In this document: in pieces, positions 1 to 5,514 of the stretch
How the letters are laid out: each line of letters opens with the position of its first letter
Numbering within the stretch: the first letter of the stretch is position 1
IMG/VR virus record: IMGVR_UViG_3300045988_036424
Location: 1-5,514 of that record
Reading direction: 5' to 3' (one strand)
Source: a virus
Length of the DNA stretch: 5,514 bases
Position numbers and translations under genes: made by a program
The notes under the pieces: generated by a model
The model's database searches: none
What the model was told of the DNA's origin: nothing
The model's input: only the letters and a program-made list of their open reading frames with translations

Positions 1-42
1 CTGTTGTACCTGTTTCAGCTGTTCCATTGTTTCGGCTGCTGC
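1..42. repeat. Left copy of a 42-nt terminal direct repeat, identical to 5473-5514. It is a circular-assembly overlap and implies a 5472-nt circular genome.
   Basis: Base-by-base comparison: ctgttgtacctgtttcagctgttccattgtttcggctgctgc occurs at 1-42 and again at 5473-5514. A minus-strand reading frame runs through the junction without interruption. Confidence 0.95.
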
Positions 43-357
43 CTCGGCCTTTTCGTGCATCGTCATGATGTCCTTCGGCAGATTTTCGAGGTCTGTGCCT
101 TCGGTGTATACCATGCTTTTTGCCTTGATGGATGTGTCTCCAGCTTCCAGTCTTGCGATTGCGCTTGCAAGGTCGTAGCCCTCGCCGGCTCGCTGGATTT
201 TCTCGTATGTGTTCTCATCCGGCTGCTGAATGTAGTCGGTTGTGTCGTTCGGTCGCTTTACTGCTTTCCACGTTGGGGCAGTCTTGCTGCCCGGATTGTT
301 TGCTACTCTTTCAGTTGGCATTCCGTAGTATCTTACCATCACATCAGGATTTAACAT
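1..357 (-). CDS. N-terminal 119 codons of a 142-aa ORF that crosses the circular junction and continues at 5472 down to 5401. Putative internal scaffolding protein (VP3-like) by position. The C-terminal tail is rich in Glu and Lys.
   Basis: Hand translation: ATG at 357-355 is preceded by AAGGAGA plus a 6-nt spacer. The product is MLNPDVMVRYYGMPTERVANNPGSKTAPTWKAVKRPNDTTDYIQQPDENTYEKIQRAGEGYDLASAIARLEAGDTSIKAKSMVYTEGTDLENLPKDIMTMHEKAEAAAETMEQLKQVQQ, open to base 1. The ORF sits immediately upstream of VP1 and downstream of the VP5-like gene, as VP3 does in gokushoviruses. Its start overlaps the upstream gene's stop by 14 nt. The functional call rests on synteny and size only. Confidence 0.6.
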   Translation of the reverse strand, partial: MLNPDVMVRYYGMPTERVANNPGSKTAPTWKAVKRPNDTTDYIQQPDENTYEKIQRAGEGYDLASAIARLEAGDTSIKAKSMVYTEGTDLENLPKDIMTMHEKAEAAAETMEQLKQVQQ

Positions 358-598
358 TGGCTGTCTCCTTCAGGTCGATGAGCCGTGCGATGTGTTCAGG
401 CATTGCTTCGCTCATGTAGCCGGTCTCGGTGTCAAATTCGCCCAGTTCCACGAGGCTGATGTCTTCGATTTCGCTTGGCTTGCTTTCGTTGGCTTTCCAT
501 CGTGCCGTTCGGACTGCCTGTGCCCGGTTGTTCTGCAGGAACGGCTGCGAGTAGCCATTGGTCAGCGAATCGTGGAATGTGTAGAACTTCAGTTTCAT
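344..598 (-). CDS. Small non-structural protein, 84 aa, resembling gokushovirus VP5/ORF5.
   Basis: ORF track. ATG at 598 is preceded by GGAGGGG plus a 7-nt spacer. The N-terminus MKLKFYTFHDSLTNGYSQPF...A.R and the segment EDISLVELGEFDTETG resemble the recalled VP5 pattern (MK.FT..D.K......PFF....A.R.F ... PEDY.L.EIG.FD..TG). The gene lies between the accessory genes and the VP3-like gene, as expected. Confidence 0.65.
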   Translation of the reverse strand: MKLKFYTFHDSLTNGYSQPFLQNNRAQAVRTARWKANESKPSEIEDISLVELGEFDTETGYMSEAMPEHIARLIDLKETANVKS

Positions 599-601
599 GT
601 T

Positions 602-994
602 TTAGCCCCTCCATCGAGCTTTCTTTTCCCTTACGTCTATGTGCGTAAAGTTTTCGTATCTGCCTATTCCGTATTTGTCTGGATATTTGCGGTTTAGGTA
701 TCTTTGCACTTCGCTTGCTGGCACCGTTTTCACTTTGATGTCGGCTGCCGTGCCCTTTGTGTGTTGTGAGTTTTTTACACCGCCGATTTTCTTGTTATAT
801 TCTGGTGTTCTGTATCCGCTGGTGATTATTACCGGCATTTTGAAGTTTGTTCTTACATCTTCCAGCACTTTTATCAGTTCTGAGTCGATGAGAACTTCAT
901 CACACTGGTAATCTTTTTGCGCAAATTCTTTCACTTTGAAGTGTTCGCTTACTTGGTGGGTGCCCTGATTGAATAAGCTGTATTCATGCAGCAT
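602..994 (-). CDS. Zinc-dependent cell-wall peptidase of the M15 family (Peptidase_M15_3 / DUF882-like). It is a catalytic domain only and a putative endolysin.
   Basis: 130 aa. Motifs SGYRTPEYN, SQHTKGTAAD (His-x6-Asp) and FTHID (distal His-x-Asp) match the H..D...H zinc triad layout of M15 peptidases. The N-terminal HFKVKEF motif is also typical. No N-terminal hydrophobic signal is present (MLHEYSLFNQGTHQ...). The RBS-like GGGGAAAGAG lies upstream of ATG 994. Confidence 0.88.
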   Translation of the reverse strand: MLHEYSLFNQGTHQVSEHFKVKEFAQKDYQCDEVLIDSELIKVLEDVRTNFKMPVIITSGYRTPEYNKKIGGVKNSQHTKGTAADIKVKTVPASEVQRYLNRKYPDKYGIGRYENFTHIDVREKKARWRG

Positions 995-996
995 TT

Positions 997-1107
997 TTAC
1001 TCTTTCCCCGCGTCTTTCAGTGCGTGGTAAATCTCGTCAAGCTTTTCCAGAATGCGCATCATCAGTTCAATCGCTTCTTTGACGTCCTTGACCTTAATCA
1101 GTGCCAT
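997..1107 (-). CDS. Hypothetical 36-aa micro-ORF with a charged, helical-looking product (MALIKVKDVKEAIELMMRILEKLDEIYHALKDAGKE). It is not in the ORF track.
   Basis: Hand translation. ATG at 1107 is preceded by AAGGAGATGG with about 7 nt spacing. The TAA stop at 999-997 lies 2 nt before the peptidase ATG, a translationally coupled layout. I recognise no homology. Confidence 0.5.
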   Translation of the reverse strand: MALIKVKDVKEAIELMMRILEKLDEIYHALKDAGKE

Positions 1108-1142
1108 TAAACCATCTCCTTTCTTTTTTGGCCTTTGTCCAG

Positions 1143-1259
1143 CTACAGCCTGATGCCGCCCCGGCTGACCTTTGGCCGGACGTTGATGTTTTTTACCCGC
1201 TTTGCAGTCTGGGTAAAATGTTTCTGGTCGCCTCGACCCGCTCCGCTTCTGTGTGCCAT
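1143..1259 (-). CDS. Small, highly basic DNA-binding/packaging protein of 38 aa (phiX174 J-like, gokushovirus ORF8-like). It is not in the ORF track.
   Basis: Hand translation: GAAAGGAGATAACACA-ATG gives a strong SD. The product is MAHRSGAGRGDQKHFTQTAKRVKNINVRPKVSRGGIRL*. It is rich in Arg and Lys and ends in RGGIRL, which I recall as the characteristic C-terminus (MRGGIRF/L) of chlamydiaphage ORF8-type proteins. Confidence 0.75.
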   Translation of the reverse strand: MAHRSGAGRGDQKHFTQTAKRVKNINVRPKVSRGGIRL

Positions 1260-1278
1260 TGTGTTATCTCCTTTCTTT

Positions 1279-1320
1279 TAAATATAAAAGGCAGACAACC
1301 AATATTGGTCGTCTGCCTTT
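1279..1320 (-). terminator. Rho-independent terminator-like hairpin downstream of rep. The stem is 14 bp, the loop 6 nt, and a U-rich tail follows.
   Basis: Minus strand reads AAAGGCAGACGACC-AATATT-GGTTGTCTGCCTTT followed by TATATTTAAAAG. The stems are 1320-1307 and 1300-1287. On the minus-strand RNA the only imperfect pair is a G-U wobble, whereas on the plus strand it is an A-C mismatch. This favours function on minus-strand transcripts. Confidence 0.6.
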
Positions 1321-1349
1321 ATTTTATACAAAAACTTCTGTTTTGTCAA
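1321..1349 (-). promoter_or_regulatory. Sigma-70-type promoter candidate for the J-like / orf36 / peptidase / VP5 / VP3 / VP1 gene block.
   Basis: Minus strand reads TTGACA (1349-1344), a 17-nt spacer, then TAAAAT (1326-1321). That is 6/6 and 5/6 matches to consensus with optimal spacing. It lies about 60 nt upstream of the first strong SD of the block. This is sequence-pattern evidence only. Confidence 0.5.
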
Positions 1350-1489
1350 TACGGCAAGGTTTTTTAAGAAAATAGATTGATATATTAGTTGCTGGTTTTG
1401 CTCCTTTGGTTTGAAAAGCGCTTTAGCGCTCTGCCGCATGGAGCTAAAGCGGAATGCGGCTAATCCATTCATTATAAGCGCTGTGCGCG

Positions 1490-2479
1490 TCATGCTTTCG
1501 GCTCACGCCATTTTTGCTTTAGCTTGTCCTTTTCCTTCTGAATGTTTAGATAGGTTTCATAATCCACGCTTGTAGACTGTTCGAGATTGATTAAGCTTTG
1601 TATTGCACTGCGTCTGCGTCTGGCTCTAACTTCTCTCAGCTCGTCAGAATGTGCCTTAAAATAGCTTTCAGTGTCTTGGCTGGTATCCTTATCAAGTATC
1701 TTATCAAAATAGCGTGGTGGCCTTTTTTCGCGTCCCCCTGCACAGATGATGCTATCTGTCTTTAAGATTTCATCTTTGTGTTCGTTCAGATACTTTTCGC
1801 CAATGCCTTTCGACATGATTCGGAACTCTGGCTCTCTGCCTTCCATCCAGTATTTTGCCGCTTGCTCTGCACCTATGGCTTTCTTGTTGACGTATTGCGC
1901 CACGTATGCAAAGCTTCCCGGTTGTGCTGGTGAAAAGTCTATCATGCCATTGCCCCAGATTTTTTGTAGCCATTCGCTTTTGAAATAGCTGTTGCCTTTT
2001 TGGTTTTTATACCATTGTGCATCCGGTGGCTTTAATCCGAATACTATAGCATGATAGTGTGGTCTTTTTGTTCTGTCGCCGTATTCGGCTGCTAGGAAGT
2101 ATTTTATTGGCTTCTTGTATGCTTTCCGTAGACGTTTCAGAAATAGCTGCACGTCTCGCTTGCTTACTGTTTGACTTTGAATGCTTCTGTAGCCTTTGAC
2201 GATTTCGCCGTATGGTATATGCTCATCGTCATACGTCAGTGTTAGAAAAATCACATCGTTCCATTCTTTGGCTTCTAGCTCTATTCTGGTTGCCCATTGG
2301 TCTGCTATCTGTTTGCGGCAGTACTCGCATTTACCGCATGGTAACAATGCGAATTTTCCTTTTTTGATTCCGTCCATGATGTCCGTTTGCAGTCCTTGTT
2401 TGGATAGGTTTTCCAGACTTCCCCATAGTTTTGGTTTTTTCGTATCCATTTGAAATACTAATGGTTTTGTACATGGCAT
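1490..2479 (-). CDS. Replication initiation protein (Microviridae VP4 / phiX174 gpA-like HUH rolling-circle endonuclease).
   Basis: Motif 1 is FLTLTY, motif 2 is HYHAIVF (HUH), and motif 3 is AYVAQYVNKK with paired catalytic tyrosines as in phiX174 A. An N-terminal Cys cluster PCGKCEYCR is present. The ORF track extends to a GTG at 2494 (334 aa). I prefer the ATG at 2479 (329 aa) because it gives the MPCxxP N-terminus typical of VP4 proteins. The start remains uncertain. Confidence 0.93.
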   Translation of the reverse strand: MPCTKPLVFQMDTKKPKLWGSLENLSKQGLQTDIMDGIKKGKFALLPCGKCEYCRKQIADQWATRIELEAKEWNDVIFLTLTYDDEHIPYGEIVKGYRSIQSQTVSKRDVQLFLKRLRKAYKKPIKYFLAAEYGDRTKRPHYHAIVFGLKPPDAQWYKNQKGNSYFKSEWLQKIWGNGMIDFSPAQPGSFAYVAQYVNKKAIGAEQAAKYWMEGREPEFRIMSKGIGEKYLNEHKDEILKTDSIICAGGREKRPPRYFDKILDKDTSQDTESYFKAHSDELREVRARRRRSAIQSLINLEQSTSVDYETYLNIQKEKDKLKQKWREPKA

Positions 2480-2487
2480 TTTTGTTA

Positions 2488-2520
2488 CCGGCACAAGCTT
2501 CCTTGTCTATCTTGTGCCGG
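2488..2520. promoter_or_regulatory. Perfect 10-bp inverted repeat with a 13-nt loop, immediately upstream of (or overlapping) the rep start.
   Basis: ccggcacaag (2488-2497) and cttgtgccgg (2511-2520) are exact reverse complements. On the minus strand the loop reads ATAGACAAGGAAG and contains an SD-like AAGGAAG. The alternative GTG start at 2494 lies inside the stem. Confidence 0.7.
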
Positions 2521-2573
2521 TTGACACCTCGCTTTCTTTATATATTAACTTGTTGTAGTCGTAGTAGTAGTGT

Positions 2574-2731
2574 TGTTGAAAGTGTTGAAAACTCGTTTTT
2601 TTAACGTTACTACGTTTATTTATTGTCTTTTTGCCTGTTGAAAACTTTGTTGAATTGTTGAATGTTCGTCATTTTTACGAATTTCTTTGTGCAACTTGTT
2701 GTTGAAAACCTGTTGAAAGTGTTGAAAACTC
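2574..2731. repeat. Iteron array of eight GTTGAA(A) copies (TTTCAAC on the coding strand) in three clusters. It includes a perfect 21-nt direct repeat.
   Basis: GTTGAA starts at 2575, 2584, 2637, 2649, 2657, 2701, 2712 and 2721. The clusters begin 62 and 64 nt apart. TGTTGAAAGTGTTGAAAACTC is identical at 2574-2594 and 2711-2731. The array lies in the only large non-coding region (2495-2805). Confidence 0.85.
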
Positions 2732-2769
2732 AAGTTTTCCACATTCTTTATTTTTTGGATTATTGTTAC

Positions 2770-2799
2770 AAAAAAGGGGGATGTTTTCCACCCCCCCTT
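2770..2799 (-). terminator. Rho-independent terminator downstream of VP2.
   Basis: Minus strand just after the VP2 TAA (2808-2806) reads AAGGGGGGG-TGGAAAACAT-CCCCC-TTTTTTG. This is a G/C stem (2776-2780 paired with 2791-2797) followed by a T6 run (2775-2770). Confidence 0.65.
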
Positions 2800-2805
2800 C
2801 CTTTC

Positions 2806-3675
2806 TTAGTCTCCTTTGTATGCGTTGAATGCGTCCATGTTTGGCATGATTGGCACTCTTTGGTTGTACTTTTTGAAGTTTTCTGCTGTGTCTTTGGCTG
2901 CTTTGCCAGCTTTTTCTGCTGCTTTTTCTGCTGCTTTTTTGGCTGCTTTGCCGGCTCCCGCAAGGCCTGCACCTAATTTGCTAGCTGCATAGGTGTACTG
3001 TTGCGCCTGTTTTGCGCTTGAGGTTGCCAGCTCGCTCGCTGCCTGTTCCCAGCTTTTCGCATTCTTAAACTGTTTTGCGCTGGTCGCCTGTTTTGCCAGC
3101 TGTAAGTATTTGTCTGCCAGTTCTGCCGTGTTGTTGCCATATTCGTACATTGCGGATACGCTTGCAGCCTGTGCGCTCTGCTGGTTATAACGTTGGCTTC
3201 CAATGCTTGCAGATGCTCCCGATGGTGCGCTTGTTGCTCCGTTGGTCGCTGCTAGGATAGGATTGATGCCCGCTGCGATCATGTCCTTTACGGTATCTTG
3301 ATAGGCTGTCCCGCGCATTTCCTTTTGAAACGCTCGTTCTGCTGCTGCTTCTGCGCTGTTGTACTTCTTGGCGCTTGCTTGGCTTCCAGCATTCGCGAGG
3401 TTGCTCAGCAGTCCGCTCATCATTTGCAGTGCGTTTGCGGTGTTTACGCTGCTCTGGTTGCCGAATGTGGCAATACCTGTTGGCGTGCTGATTTGTGTCG
3501 CACCGATTTGCTGTGGTGCTGTTACACTGCCGGTTGTGGTCTCGTTGCCTGATGTGGTCTCGTTGCCTGATGCTTGGCTGTTTTTGGCTCCGCTCTGGTT
3601 ACTGCTCGTTATGATGCCTGTTAATATGCTTAGCCCTTGCATGAGGTATGGCATAAAGCTTAATAACGTCTCCAT
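2806..3675 (-). CDS. DNA pilot / minor capsid protein (VP2, phiX174 H-like).
   Basis: 289 aa and located immediately downstream of VP1. It has a hydrophobic N-terminal segment (LLSFMPYLMQGLSILTGIITS), a long low-complexity body rich in Ala, Gln and Ser, and a Lys/Ala-repeat C-terminus (KAAKKAAEKAAEKAGKAAK). This composition is typical of microvirus pilot proteins. The call rests on synteny and composition, not on a specific motif. Confidence 0.8.
   Translation of the reverse strand: METLLSFMPYLMQGLSILTGIITSSNQSGAKNSQASGNETTSGNETTTGSVTAPQQIGATQISTPTGIATFGNQSSVNTANALQMMSGLLSNLANAGSQASAKKYNSAEAAAERAFQKEMRGTAYQDTVKDMIAAGINPILAATNGATSAPSGASASIGSQRYNQQSAQAASVSAMYEYGNNTAELADKYLQLAKQATSAKQFKNAKSWEQAASELATSSAKQAQQYTYAASKLGAGLAGAGKAAKKAAEKAAEKAGKAAKDTAENFKKYNQRVPIMPNMDAFNAYKGD
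3536..3571. repeat. Perfect 2 x 18-nt in-frame tandem duplication inside VP2.
   Basis: gtggtctcgttgcctgat occurs at 3536-3553 and again at 3554-3571. It encodes the duplicated SGNETT-SGNETT segment. Confidence 0.95.
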
Positions 3676-3709
3676 TCAAAAATAGCCCCGCTTTTGCGGG
3701 GCTTCCTCC
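3676..3709 (-). promoter_or_regulatory. Intercistronic hairpin between VP1 and VP2. It is a candidate partial terminator (attenuator) and sits between the only SD and the VP2 start codon.
   Basis: Minus strand reads TAA-GGAAGGAGGA-AGCCCCGC-AAAA-GCGGGGCT-ATTTTTGA-ATG. The 8-bp GC-rich stem (3703-3696 / 3691-3684) has an AAAA tetraloop and is followed by AUUUUUGA. GGAGG (3709-3705) is 29 nt from the ATG linearly, but only 9 unpaired nt separate them if the hairpin is folded. Confidence 0.65.
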
Positions 3710-3713
3710 TTCC

Positions 3714-5384
3714 TTAAATTCTTTCGATTCCCGGGATGCTGTAGATAGGCATTTCGCGGTACCAATCTTCTGTGAAATAGAAGTCACACAAGAATTGGTG
3801 GCTTTTTGCGCTTGTTACTGCAATCGTTCGGTCAACGTTCTTTGTTTCTTCCTGAATCCATTCTGCCGAGAGACGCGGAAGCGTTTCATAATCGTCTGCA
3901 TAGTGCCATGCGTCCAAACTTGTCTGGTAGTTAGACCGCATTTCGCCGGTTACGTAAGAAGGCTTGTAGCGGTAATCCGCCCATGCCTCTTGATAGCCAA
4001 AGATTTCATTATCTTCTGCCGTGCCTTGTGCATAGATTTCGCGGTTGTACACCGGTTGTTCGCCCAGTGCTGCCAGTCGCGGGTCGTAGTAGGTGAATCG
4101 TCCGCCACGTGTCCACTTGGTTGCAAGCCCCTGCTGGTAGCTGTGCTCTACTCGTACCACTGCCAGACCGATGATATAGCCGTACTCAGTTGCCGCATAG
4201 TCTACCATCTCTTTACTGCACGTGGTCAGGCTGTATGCTGCCGTATTGCCCAGTGCCTGTCCGGTTGTCGGGTCCGTCTGGCTTGTCTGCACAACCTGAT
4301 TGACATTGATCGCGATGCGCTGGCCGCCGATGTACTCAGGAATCTGCAGACGGCTGTCCGGTGACGTTACGCCCCACGTACCAGACAGGAACTCGCGATA
4401 GCGCGTGCCGTTGCGTGCATCTGCTTCAAAGATGTGCTGCAATGCAATAGCCATGCGCAAATCTGCAATGCTGATTGCGTTCAAGCTATTTAGGTTTGCG
4501 CCTAGGAATCCTTCTCTAAAGTTTGTTCCTTGGTTTGAGCTCGCCCCCTTTAATTGTGCCGGTTCATTTTCTCCCGGTGCTCCCGGTATATTACAGATTG
4601 CCGGGTATGCTGGTCCCGTTCCGTTCAGGTAAATTGTTACGTTATCCGTAAGTTTATTCGTCAATTCTTTGTTTGTGAATACATTTACGGCTGCGTTTCC
4701 CGTCAGGCTGATTTCCACAGGGTCAGCTTTTAACGGACTCGGCAAACAGCTGGTGAAGTAGTCGTGGAATTTACCAGCTTTTGCGGGATGTCGTGCGTAT
4801 AAGGTCCCCTCGTTTGTGTTTGTCGTTAGGCTTGGTTTGTTTGCGTAGAAATCTTTTGTTGCGTTCCCGGGATTTGGTTCTTTTCCTCCGTTATCTTCTT
4901 TTTTGTACCCTAACATTAACGGCGCTTCAAGATTTTCATCTCGAAACCATTCGTTGTATATCATGGCATACGCTCTTGCTGGGAGTGCGTTCACTTTGAT
5001 TTCGTTTTTTACTCCGGTCGGCAGTCCAAAGTAGTCTCCGATGCTGCCGTTATTTAGACCGGATGTGCCTCCGATTGTGCAAGTCGGTGTGCTGTATTCG
5101 GTCTTTTCTGCCCAGTAGTTTGTGTCGTTTTCTCCGAACATGTTTTCCCAGTGTTCCCAGAGCAGACGACAGGGCACAAAGAAGAAGTAGGTATCCATGT
5201 AGCAGTTGTCCATGATAGGATAGATTGGAGTACTCATACGAATAAGCCCGTTAAGTCGCACTCGTGCGGTATCGCCCGGAAGCACTTCATCGCAGTAGAT
5301 GGGCACTAGATCGCCTTCGTTGATGGTCGTCAGGAGCTGATGACTTCTGTCAAATTTGCTTCGTGGTCGTTCCATTCGCGGCAC
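3714..5384 (-). CDS. Major capsid protein (Microviridae VP1 / F-like).
   Basis: 556 aa from the track's GTG at 5384. The N-terminal signature is RPRSKFDRSHQLLTTINEGDLVPIYCDEVLPGDT, matching the microvirus pattern RS.FD.SH..KTT...G.L.P...DE.LPGDT. The size is typical of gokushovirus-like VP1. The true start is uncertain: alternatives are ATG 5375, or a non-canonical start upstream at 5417 (see findings). Confidence 0.95.
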   Translation of the reverse strand: MPRMERPRSKFDRSHQLLTTINEGDLVPIYCDEVLPGDTARVRLNGLIRMSTPIYPIMDNCYMDTYFFFVPCRLLWEHWENMFGENDTNYWAEKTEYSTPTCTIGGTSGLNNGSIGDYFGLPTGVKNEIKVNALPARAYAMIYNEWFRDENLEAPLMLGYKKEDNGGKEPNPGNATKDFYANKPSLTTNTNEGTLYARHPAKAGKFHDYFTSCLPSPLKADPVEISLTGNAAVNVFTNKELTNKLTDNVTIYLNGTGPAYPAICNIPGAPGENEPAQLKGASSNQGTNFREGFLGANLNSLNAISIADLRMAIALQHIFEADARNGTRYREFLSGTWGVTSPDSRLQIPEYIGGQRIAINVNQVVQTSQTDPTTGQALGNTAAYSLTTCSKEMVDYAATEYGYIIGLAVVRVEHSYQQGLATKWTRGGRFTYYDPRLAALGEQPVYNREIYAQGTAEDNEIFGYQEAWADYRYKPSYVTGEMRSNYQTSLDAWHYADDYETLPRLSAEWIQEETKNVDRTIAVTSAKSHQFLCDFYFTEDWYREMPIYSIPGIERI

Positions 5385-5400
5385 TTGCGCGAAATGGTTT

Positions 5401-5514
5401 TCACTGTTTCTGTTCGTTTTCCTTCACCTCTTCCTTTTTTTCTTCCTTCTCTTCCGGCTTCGGCTGTTCGGTCTGTTGTACCTGTTTCAGCTGTTCCATT
5501 GTTTCGGCTGCTGC
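5401..5514 (-). CDS. C-terminal part of the same junction-spanning VP3-like ORF. Bases 5473-5514 duplicate 1-42, and the stop codon TGA is at 5403-5401.
   Basis: Reverse complement of 5472-5401 reads ACC GAA CAG CCG AAG CCG GAA GAG AAG GAA GAA AAA AAG GAA GAG GTG AAG GAA AAC GAA CAG AAA CAG TGA, in frame with codons 1-119 across the junction (TEQPKPEEKEEKKEEVKENEQKQ*). Confidence 0.6.
   Translation of the reverse strand, partial: AAAETMEQLKQVQQTEQPKPEEKEEKKEEVKENEQKQ
5473..5514. repeat. Right copy of the 42-nt terminal direct repeat (circular overlap).
   Basis: Identical to 1-42. Confidence 0.95.

Follow-up and report, generated by a model that had tools for sequence, protein, structure and literature searches.

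The intergenic region between the pilot protein gene VP2 and the replication initiation gene VP4 (rep) of a gokushovirus-like microvirus (IMG/VR record IMGVR_UViG_3300045988_036424) carries clustered GTTGAA repeats next to a hairpin, which raises the question of what kind of replication signal this locus represents. The stretch of DNA analyzed, referred to below as the window, comprises positions 1 to 5514 of that record and is a complete-looking genome of ~5.5 kb, all genes of which are carried by the minus strand. To our knowledge, the mode of gokushovirus DNA replication has not been mapped. We found that the intergenic region (2488-2805) consists of two separate conserved cis elements, a repeat module (M; an AT-rich stretch, DnaA-trios and arrays of DnaA-type boxes, ~2536-2743) and a hairpin (H). 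The arrangement of M indicates that it very probably mimics the origin of the host chromosome, acting as a DnaA-dependent unwinding or replisome-loading module placed next to a strand-specific hairpin. An earlier inspection of the same DNA, hereafter the original prediction, had proposed a conserved, structured and replication-related cis region beside rep and had recommended a search for it in related microviruses. That search supported the proposal: M was carried by all 121 related microvirus genomes analyzed, always near rep, and a homologous hairpin by 96 of them.

We first consider the repeats themselves. GTTGAA occurs nine times in the window, always on the plus strand; shuffled sequences contained 2.76 copies on average and seven at most, and none of 200 shuffles reached nine. 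Eight copies start within 2575-2726 (2575, 2584, 2637, 2649, 2657, 2701, 2712 and 2721), in agreement with the eight GTTGAA(A) copies counted originally, and the ninth (2824) lies inside VP2. The 21-mer TGTTGAAAGTGTTGAAAACTC, which the outer clusters had been said to share exactly, is indeed found at both 2574 and 2711. However, the repeat unit, originally taken to be a 6- to 7-mer, is a 9-mer, TGTKGAAAA, with the logo T-G-T-(T 0.85/G 0.15)-G-A-A-A-A. The G variant of this box, TGTGGAAAA, is read on the opposite strand as the DnaA box TTTTCCACA, and the inverted box TTTTCCACA of the window fits the relaxed DnaA-box consensus TTWTNCACA.

In bacterial chromosome origins, the basal unwinding system (BUS) has been described by a DnaA box with at most two mismatches, a spacer of at most 16 nt and at least three NAN trios, with the trios on the 5΄ tail (PMC6669920, PMC8287927). 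The DnaA-trio consensus is 3΄-GAT-5΄, i.e. 5΄-TAG-3΄; the unwinding scaffold of Bacillus subtilis (oHM558) reads 5΄-TAGTAGAAGTAATAGTAG-GGCC-TGTGGATTTGTGGATAAGT and that of Helicobacter pylori TAGTAACAGTAGTAG-GGG-CGTGAATGG..., and the distal (upstream) box was reported to be sufficient for strand separation in vitro (PMC6669920, PMC8287927). The corresponding parts are present in the window in the same order (Table 1). At least three consecutive trios are found, the relatives having three to six, and they lie 5΄ of the box on the strand where the box has its TGTGGATAA-like reading. The boxes form a tandem pair with a trio spacer of 3-13 nt and at most two mismatches; for example, TGTTGAAAA differs from TGTGGATAA at two positions and from the Oscillospiraceae flavor of the box, described below, at none. 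The GTTGAAAA of the distal box begins 13 nt beyond the last trio, a distance that the window shares with the other phage configurations and with B. subtilis. Distal to the trios lies the AT-rich stretch 2536-2555, where the local GC content is 0.34, compared with 0.41-0.57 elsewhere.

The set of 121 microviruses consisted of 16 full genomes fetched after BLAST and others obtained by a motif scan of IMG/VR. A sensitive blastn search with positions 2440-2860 returned 42 phage records, which were mostly aligned over 2534-2729, and ACTTGTTGTAG was present in 17/17 BLAST-derived genomes, which had been chosen independently of this motif. M was the best-conserved DNA among diverged genomes, and in one genome, too diverged elsewhere, it was the sole megablast match. 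Read on the GTTGAA strand, M begins with an AT-rich stretch ending in (T/A)AACTTGTTG, which is followed by TAG-NNG-TAG-TAG-TAG, ~4 nt and a tandem box pair; then come a spacer, three to four boxes, a second spacer, another three to four boxes and sometimes an inverted box (33/121 genomes). Each module holds 8-13 boxes. The arrangement 2+4+4 is the commonest overall and 2+4+3 the commonest in the clade of the window. The 2+3+3 clustering originally noted is therefore correct for the window and not the typical form, being a deletion variant of 2+4+3: one 11-nt box unit, TTGTTGAAAAC, is missing at 2645-2648 and is present in most members of the clade (L007, L008 and others). Box number is thus somewhat plastic. 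The boxes stay constant although the identity of VP4 falls to 32-40%. Among genomes in which VP1 is only ~40% identical, conservation within M is strongest in the trios, in the 13-nt spacing and in the flanking AT-rich DNA. M is under strong purifying selection.

Some minor features of the modules were also recorded. From start to start, neighboring boxes of an array are 8, 9, 11 or 12 nt apart, a spacing of 10 nt occurring once in 713 cases, and about half of the genomes have NCG instead of NAG as the second trio. Many genomes of the majority configuration (see below) contain G/C-rich alternating purine-pyrimidine repeats of the CGCGCACGCGCG type, some of them direct, between H and the AT-rich end of M (L004, 3690-3735; L013, ~1085-1120; L019, ~5540-5590; L016 and others); the window has none.

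The position and orientation of M relative to rep fall into three configurations. In 90/121 genomes (the majority), M lies downstream of VP4 and its GTTGAA strand, which is also the trio strand, is the coding strand; in 25/121, comprising the clade of the window, M is inverted and lies between VP2 and VP4; and in the remaining 6/121 it lies downstream of VP4 and is inverted. Because the flanks around M in L004 and L005 are reverse-complementary, the inversion appears to have occurred in place. The occurrence of both orientations indicates that M most likely acts on double-stranded DNA. These data also bear on the possibility that DnaA serves here as a transcription factor and that M is a promoter or operator region for the neighboring genes. 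DnaA boxes do control promoters in bacteria and in phage lambda, and in the window M is situated upstream of rep. However, a promoter scan of 2300-3000 found no sigma-70-type promoter, M is downstream of rep in 96/121 genomes and in both orientations, and repression would not require trios; we thus consider this explanation extremely unlikely.

We further compared the phage modules with bacterial genomes. A pattern built from the phage modules, GTAGTAGTAGNNNNNGTKGAWANGTTRA, was searched in 596 Gb of sequence, in which we estimate that ~0.5 matches would be expected by chance. At least 120 bacterial contigs matched, mostly from Clostridia and other Bacillota. When the surroundings were searched by tblastn with Pfam-verified DnaA and DnaN queries, 112 out of 120 among the matches listed were within 2.5 kb of dnaA and/or dnaN, and 89 were near both. 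For example, in Clostridium sp. HCS.1 the match is located exactly between dnaA (1-1356) and dnaN (1629-2729). This concentration of a phage-derived pattern at dnaA and dnaN shows that the phage arrangement is a specific signature of chromosomal origins. For some matches neither gene lay inside the 2.5-kb range (L148, L208 and L235 (Porphyromonas), and L159, L232 and L194); these fit origins located away from dnaA in some lineages, or the edge of the fetched stretch; the supplementary table of PMC8287927 did not resolve the origins of Bacteroidales. Among the at least 120 matches listed there was one microvirus contig, L230 (CALBJK010000280.1, 5840 nt), which is of complete size, carries the module and was binned in a metagenome-assembled genome (MAG) of 'Prevotella sp.'; this is probably a binning artefact and not evidence of a host.

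The flavor of the boxes differs among bacterial groups. Origins of Clostridium in the strict sense use TGTTGATA and TGTGGATAA, and the TGT[T/G]GAAA(A) flavor is found in Oscillospiraceae, Ruminococcus (including R. flavefaciens), Ruthenibacterium and some uncultured Eubacteriales. In the origins of Oscillospiraceae and R. flavefaciens, ~20 TGTKGAAA boxes were counted over ~650 nt (the two strands taken together), and GATA-type boxes were absent. As in an enlarged version of the phage layout, the bacterial boxes form direct arrays with spacings of 8, 9 and 11 nt and occasional inverted boxes. The resemblance extends to the sequence level: the 33-nt BUS core is identical in a related phage (L054) and an Oscillospiraceae MAG (L202), and the third array of the window is 96.8% identical over 31 nt to an Oscillospiraceae origin (L216). 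Since the box flavor matches the origins of Oscillospiraceae and Ruminococcus, we predict, with modest confidence, a phage host in Oscillospiraceae/Ruminococcaceae. A 15-mer, CGCGCACAGCGCTTA, is also common to an Oscillospiraceae contig (L172, just after the BUS) and a module flank of phage L004 (3951-3965).

Within the viral collection, the BUS pattern was almost confined to microviruses of 4-6 kb. Fifteen non-microvirus viral contigs with AACTTGTTGTAG..GTAGTAG proved to have low-complexity coding repeats with no adjoining box arrays, and were treated as chance matches. A BUS core with DnaA-box arrays was additionally observed on L269 (IMGVR_UViG_3300013947_000130, 23.6 kb) and L271 (IMGVR_UViG_3300032030_000312, 28 kb), for which no VP1, VP4, DnaA or DnaN match was obtained within the stretch fetched; they are possibly further mobile elements that carry origin-like modules, or else bacterial origins misclassified as viral.

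The bacterial matches decide largely against the explanation given in the original prediction, according to which the HUH Rep binds the GTTGAA(A) repeats as its iterons, and repeats and hairpin together make up a rolling-circle origin like those of circular Rep-encoding single-stranded (CRESS) DNA viruses and plasmids, or else the repeats are operators for a regulator of rep. A stem-loop with iterons is the classic layout of HUH origins, and the repeats are clustered both by rep and by a conserved hairpin. However, the same 9-mer arrays fill the dnaA-dnaN origins of Oscillospiraceae and Ruminococcus, where VP4 is absent, and there as here they are joined to a trio and AT-rich core, the trios lying at BUS spacing. 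The boxes are moreover unchanged among phages with VP4 proteins of only 32-40% identity, and M inverts relative to the hairpin and rep. In CRESS-DNA viruses the geometry of iterons and hairpin is fixed; here the orientation of the repeats varies with respect to both H and rep, so the arrangement does not appear to be that of Rep iterons held in fixed geometry with a nick hairpin. Recognition of the repeats by Rep or by a rep regulator is accordingly very unlikely.

It is in all likelihood host DnaA that M binds. The question is then whether binding alone would be sufficient, i.e. whether the arrays merely titrate or sense host DnaA to stop host initiation or to time phage development, with no unwinding. 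Clusters of extra DnaA boxes perturb initiation in B. subtilis and in Escherichia coli (datA), the 8-13 boxes per genome would be multiplied on a multicopy replicative form, and such a function is compatible with the orientation independence of M. Titration, however, needs boxes only, and the strongest conservation is that of the trios, of the 13-nt spacing and of the AT-rich flank. For this reason we favor unwinding: M has probably been selected for strand opening and not for mere binding, and a pure DnaA sink seems unlikely.

On the basis of these observations, M could operate as follows. Host DnaA-ATP would fill the box arrays on the double-stranded replicative form, and from the tandem boxes by the trios a DnaA filament would be nucleated along the TAG strand. 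This filament would melt the AT-rich stretch 2536-2555, and the opened DNA might then load the host helicase and replisome, present the hairpin or nick region as single-stranded DNA (ssDNA) to the HUH Rep, or both. As to the outcome, M might drive theta-like replication of the replicative form, which we propose tentatively; that it assists nicking by Rep seems rather doubtful. The AT-rich end of M faces H in 115/121 genomes.

Several observations weigh against this interpretation. The window lacks the 4-nt G/C-rich gap and the 8-nt box spacing of the BUS: its spacer TGT is not G/C-rich, its proximal box is 1 nt nearer the trios, so that the boxes are 9 and not 8 nt apart, and its second trio is TCG. 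Because of this spacer and spacing, the window itself misses the pattern used for the bacterial scan; the canonical gap and box spacing are present in most phages of the other configurations. The boxes of the window also differ from TTATCCACA at two positions, one of them the usually conserved C6, and the preference of host DnaA for such a box is deduced from the origins of candidate hosts. The BUS model leaves the conserved AACTTGTTG unaccounted for. In six of the 121 genomes the boxes, and not the AT-rich end, face H, which weakens the idea that melting exposes H. Finally, the classical gokushoviruses phiMH2K, SpV4 and Chp2 gave only weak BUS-type matches, which we take as chance; these phages do not have the module, and gokushovirus replication in general can therefore dispense with it.

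The second element, H, is separate from M. The original prediction had described a perfect 10-bp stem with a 13-nt loop beside rep; the loop, the perfect pairing and the position are as described, and the stem is longer (11 bp). Folded as ssDNA, H has an energy of −14 kcal/mol (z = −7.3). A k-mer survey of the genomes in coding orientation and a targeted search, for which GGTGTCA served as the anchor, identified homologous hairpins together with this motif in 96/121 genomes, without exception on the coding strand and directly beside VP4; in some genomes the motif lies within an extended stem. The family has a common form, in which GGTGTCA is followed by the stem, a loop with ATCAAG(T/A)A or AGACAAG(G/T)A and the return stem. 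To evaluate covariation we used a loop-anchored pair count. There were 34 distinct 5΄ arms, with three to four Watson-Crick pair types per position, and positions 4-11 were paired in 96-100%, a count that leans toward pairing because the hairpin finder allowed at most one mismatch. RNAalifold predicted no pairs from a MAFFT alignment of the hairpins, because the hairpin arms were out of register in that alignment. Two compensatory changes in the stem were found within the clade of the window.

In that clade, H ends ~8-10 nt ahead of the VP4 ATG. In L004 and L005, which represent the other two configurations, it starts 2 nt past the VP4 stop codon, and in 73 of the 96 genomes the hairpin is downstream, not upstream, of VP4. 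This location does not agree with the translational control of Rep that had been suggested from a Shine-Dalgarno-like AAGGAAG in the loop, nor does the loop itself, which becomes AAGTAAG or AAGTAAT within the clade. Where a T-run follows H, as in many majority-configuration genomes, the hairpin could also be a terminator. Because H is fixed on the coding strand by VP4 while M flips, H is strand-specific and M is not. We regard H as a candidate element, most likely either the site nicked by Rep or a priming signal for the complementary strand. A conserved hairpin beside rep has been described in reekeekee- and roodoodooviruses, for which negative-strand priming was suggested, though not certified, by the authors (PMC9865509).

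We also considered the possibility that M, rather than H, is the complementary-strand origin. According to this explanation, a direct and an inverted box would pair on the packaged strand, and the resulting hairpin, with its double-stranded DnaA box, would attract DnaA, helicase and primase much as in the ABC-primosome. In the window, the direct box 2720-2730 and the inverted box 2733-2743 can indeed form a hairpin with 10/11 pairs, and the trios of the majority configuration are carried by the coding strand. However, only 33/121 genomes have inverted boxes, direct-repeat arrays are unable to pair mutually, and 31 genomes, the window among them, carry the trios on the non-coding strand. A switch of the packaged strand along with the orientation of M was looked for and rejected: AT and GC skew and four-fold-site composition follow the coding strand identically, the synonymous-site skew being extreme, with A at 0.43 and T at 0.125 of four-fold sites on the coding strand in all three configurations (window plus 120 relatives). 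This test is only weakly informative because the coding strand of phiMH2K is also A-rich. The viral strand of phiX174 is T-rich, the opposite of the A-rich coding strand here. Taken together, we judge a complementary-strand origin within M to be highly improbable, and retain the DnaA-dependent unwinding module as the preferred interpretation.

The gene context assumed in the original prediction was recovered, with VP1, VP2 and Rep/VP4 all on the minus strand, when the six main open reading frames (ORFs) of the window were compared with Pfam and PHROGs (Table 1). Four of the six matched Pfam families (Phage_F, REP_ORF2-G2P, Peptidase_M15 and Phage_ORF5), and a 71-amino-acid ORF had no Pfam or PHROG match. 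No RepA-type protein was found among the six in either database; the plasmid-type winged-helix initiator that an iteron-type theta plasmid origin requires is thus not seen among them. The closest GenBank genomes were human-gut gokushoviruses (87-89% identity). The intrinsic terminator of VP2 folds at −21.6 kcal/mol, with 1 of 200 shuffles equally good, and the position of its hairpin is conserved in most, not all, close relatives. An inverted-box-like 9-mer, GTTTTCCAC, occurs within this stem-loop (2783-2791, plus strand) and is probably coincidental, because close relatives carry GTTTTGCCA at that place. Two small ORFs, 2620-2742 (minus) and 2662-2976 (plus), overlap the region.

Table 1. Features of the window; coordinates are positions in the 5514-nt stretch
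Feature	Position	Strand	Remarks
VP1	5384-3714	minus	Pfam Phage_F, E = 1e-145
VP2 pilot protein	3675-2806	minus	match to PHROG pilot proteins
Intrinsic terminator of VP2	2764-2802 (hairpin 2770-2802)	minus	G-rich hairpin, then U-run; belongs to the VP2 gene, outside M
Inverted box TTTTCCACA	2735-2743		accompanies the direct boxes of the third array
Third array	2700-2708, 2711-2719, 2720-2728	plus	three direct boxes
Second array	2636-2644, 2648-2656, 2656-2664	plus	three direct DnaA-type boxes; four in close relatives
Tandem DnaA-box pair	2574-2582 (TGTTGAAAG), 2583-2591 (TGTTGAAAA)	plus	
Spacer TGT	between the trios (end 2570) and the first box (2574)	plus	
DnaA-trio array	2556-2570	plus	TAG TCG TAG TAG TAG; three consecutive TAG adjoin the spacer
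Conserved AACTTGTTG	2547-2555	plus	closes the AT-rich stretch
AT-rich stretch TCTTTATATATTAACTTGTTG	2536-2555	plus	candidate DNA-unwinding element; ~81% A+T
GGTGTCA motif	2522-2528	minus	directly 5΄ of H (coding-strand reading)
Hairpin H	2487-2497/2511-2521	minus (coding)	11-bp stem, 13-nt loop; 100% complementary inverted repeat
Loop of H		minus (coding)	ATAGACAAGGAAG
Rep/VP4	2494 or 2479 to 1490	minus	Pfam REP_ORF2-G2P; PHROG replication initiation protein
M15 peptidase		minus	Pfam Peptidase_M15
VP5		minus	

Full-text literature searches, which are thin on subscription journals, returned no paper that joins gokushoviruses or other microviruses with DnaA boxes, chromosomal-type origins or DnaA-trios, and no description of DnaA-trios in phage genomes. 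The only complete DnaA-trio/DnaA-box unwinding cores of which we found a description are those of bacterial chromosome origins. If M is functional, a rolling-circle ssDNA phage co-opts the master initiator of its host. Many gut gokushoviruses may then be hybrid replicons that combine an HUH Rep with a working, DnaA-recruiting miniature of the host origin, a generalization that we put forward with some reserve. In such phages, the replicative form might be opened or replicated like the host chromosome, possibly in a plasmid-like or persistent state, or nicking by Rep might be licensed by DnaA-dependent melting, and phage replication would be coupled to the initiation state of the host. We know of no identified hosts for the abundant gut gokushoviruses. 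Because each module would copy the box flavor of its host's origin, M might allow the hosts of hundreds of uncultured gut microviruses to be predicted from sequence. As a compact natural origin core of ~210 nt, a functional M would also be useful for studying origin architecture in Clostridia, and since DnaA strand-separation assays already exist, a biochemical test is readily available.

Finally, we compared the locus with known systems. M shares with the bacterial BUS (B. subtilis incC; Richardson 2016) the (TAG)n trios 5΄ of TGTGGATAA-like boxes on one strand, the short spacer, tandem boxes 8-9 nt apart, the 13 nt between the last trio and the distal box, the AT-rich flank and the further arrays. 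It differs in its size (~210 nt) and in its location by an HUH rep gene of a 5.5-kb ssDNA rolling-circle phage instead of between dnaA and dnaN, in the extra invariant AACTTGTTG and, in the clade of the window, in the shifted proximal box and the spacer that is not G/C-rich. Since M lies between VP2 and VP4 and not on a bacterial chromosome beside dnaA or dnaN, it would work like an origin core and yet be no chromosomal origin.

Mobile replicons are known to recruit host DnaA through DnaA boxes, as in the origins of pSC101, P1, F and RK2 and the A site of the ABC-primosome, and the same recruitment is predicted for M. In those systems, however, one or a few boxes aid a plasmid-encoded initiator acting on its own iterons, and they are not known to have a complete core of trios and tandem boxes or host-like arrays. 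With the origins of CRESS-DNA viruses and rolling-circle plasmids, the locus has in common a hairpin with a conserved loop and a covarying stem that abuts rep; it departs from them in that the repeats appear to be boxes of the host DnaA type and change their orientation relative to the hairpin.

PhiX174 belongs to the same virus family and has a homologous Rep. Its origin, a 30-nt site, CAACTTG^ATATTAATAAC, is inside gene A, with a separate hairpin for primosome assembly. The AACTTG by the trios (2547-2555, plus strand) recalls the CAACTTG^A cleavage context, and the majority-type H loop (for example, L004 3617-3626 and relatives), when complemented, reads CTTACTTGATAG and contains ACTTGATA, which agrees at 8/8 positions with the origin core. 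However, phiX174 lacks both DnaA boxes and trios and carries its origin within the rep gene; the window has the two motifs on its non-coding strand, and its H loop fits less well (CCTTGTCTAT). These motifs may be recognized by Rep or may be coincidental. The closest parallel to H itself comes from the reekeekee- and roodoodooviruses: although they belong to other clades, have other sequences and are reported with no DnaA-type module, they likewise possess an intergenic stem-loop by rep with an identical loop and compensatory changes in the stem (PMC9865509).

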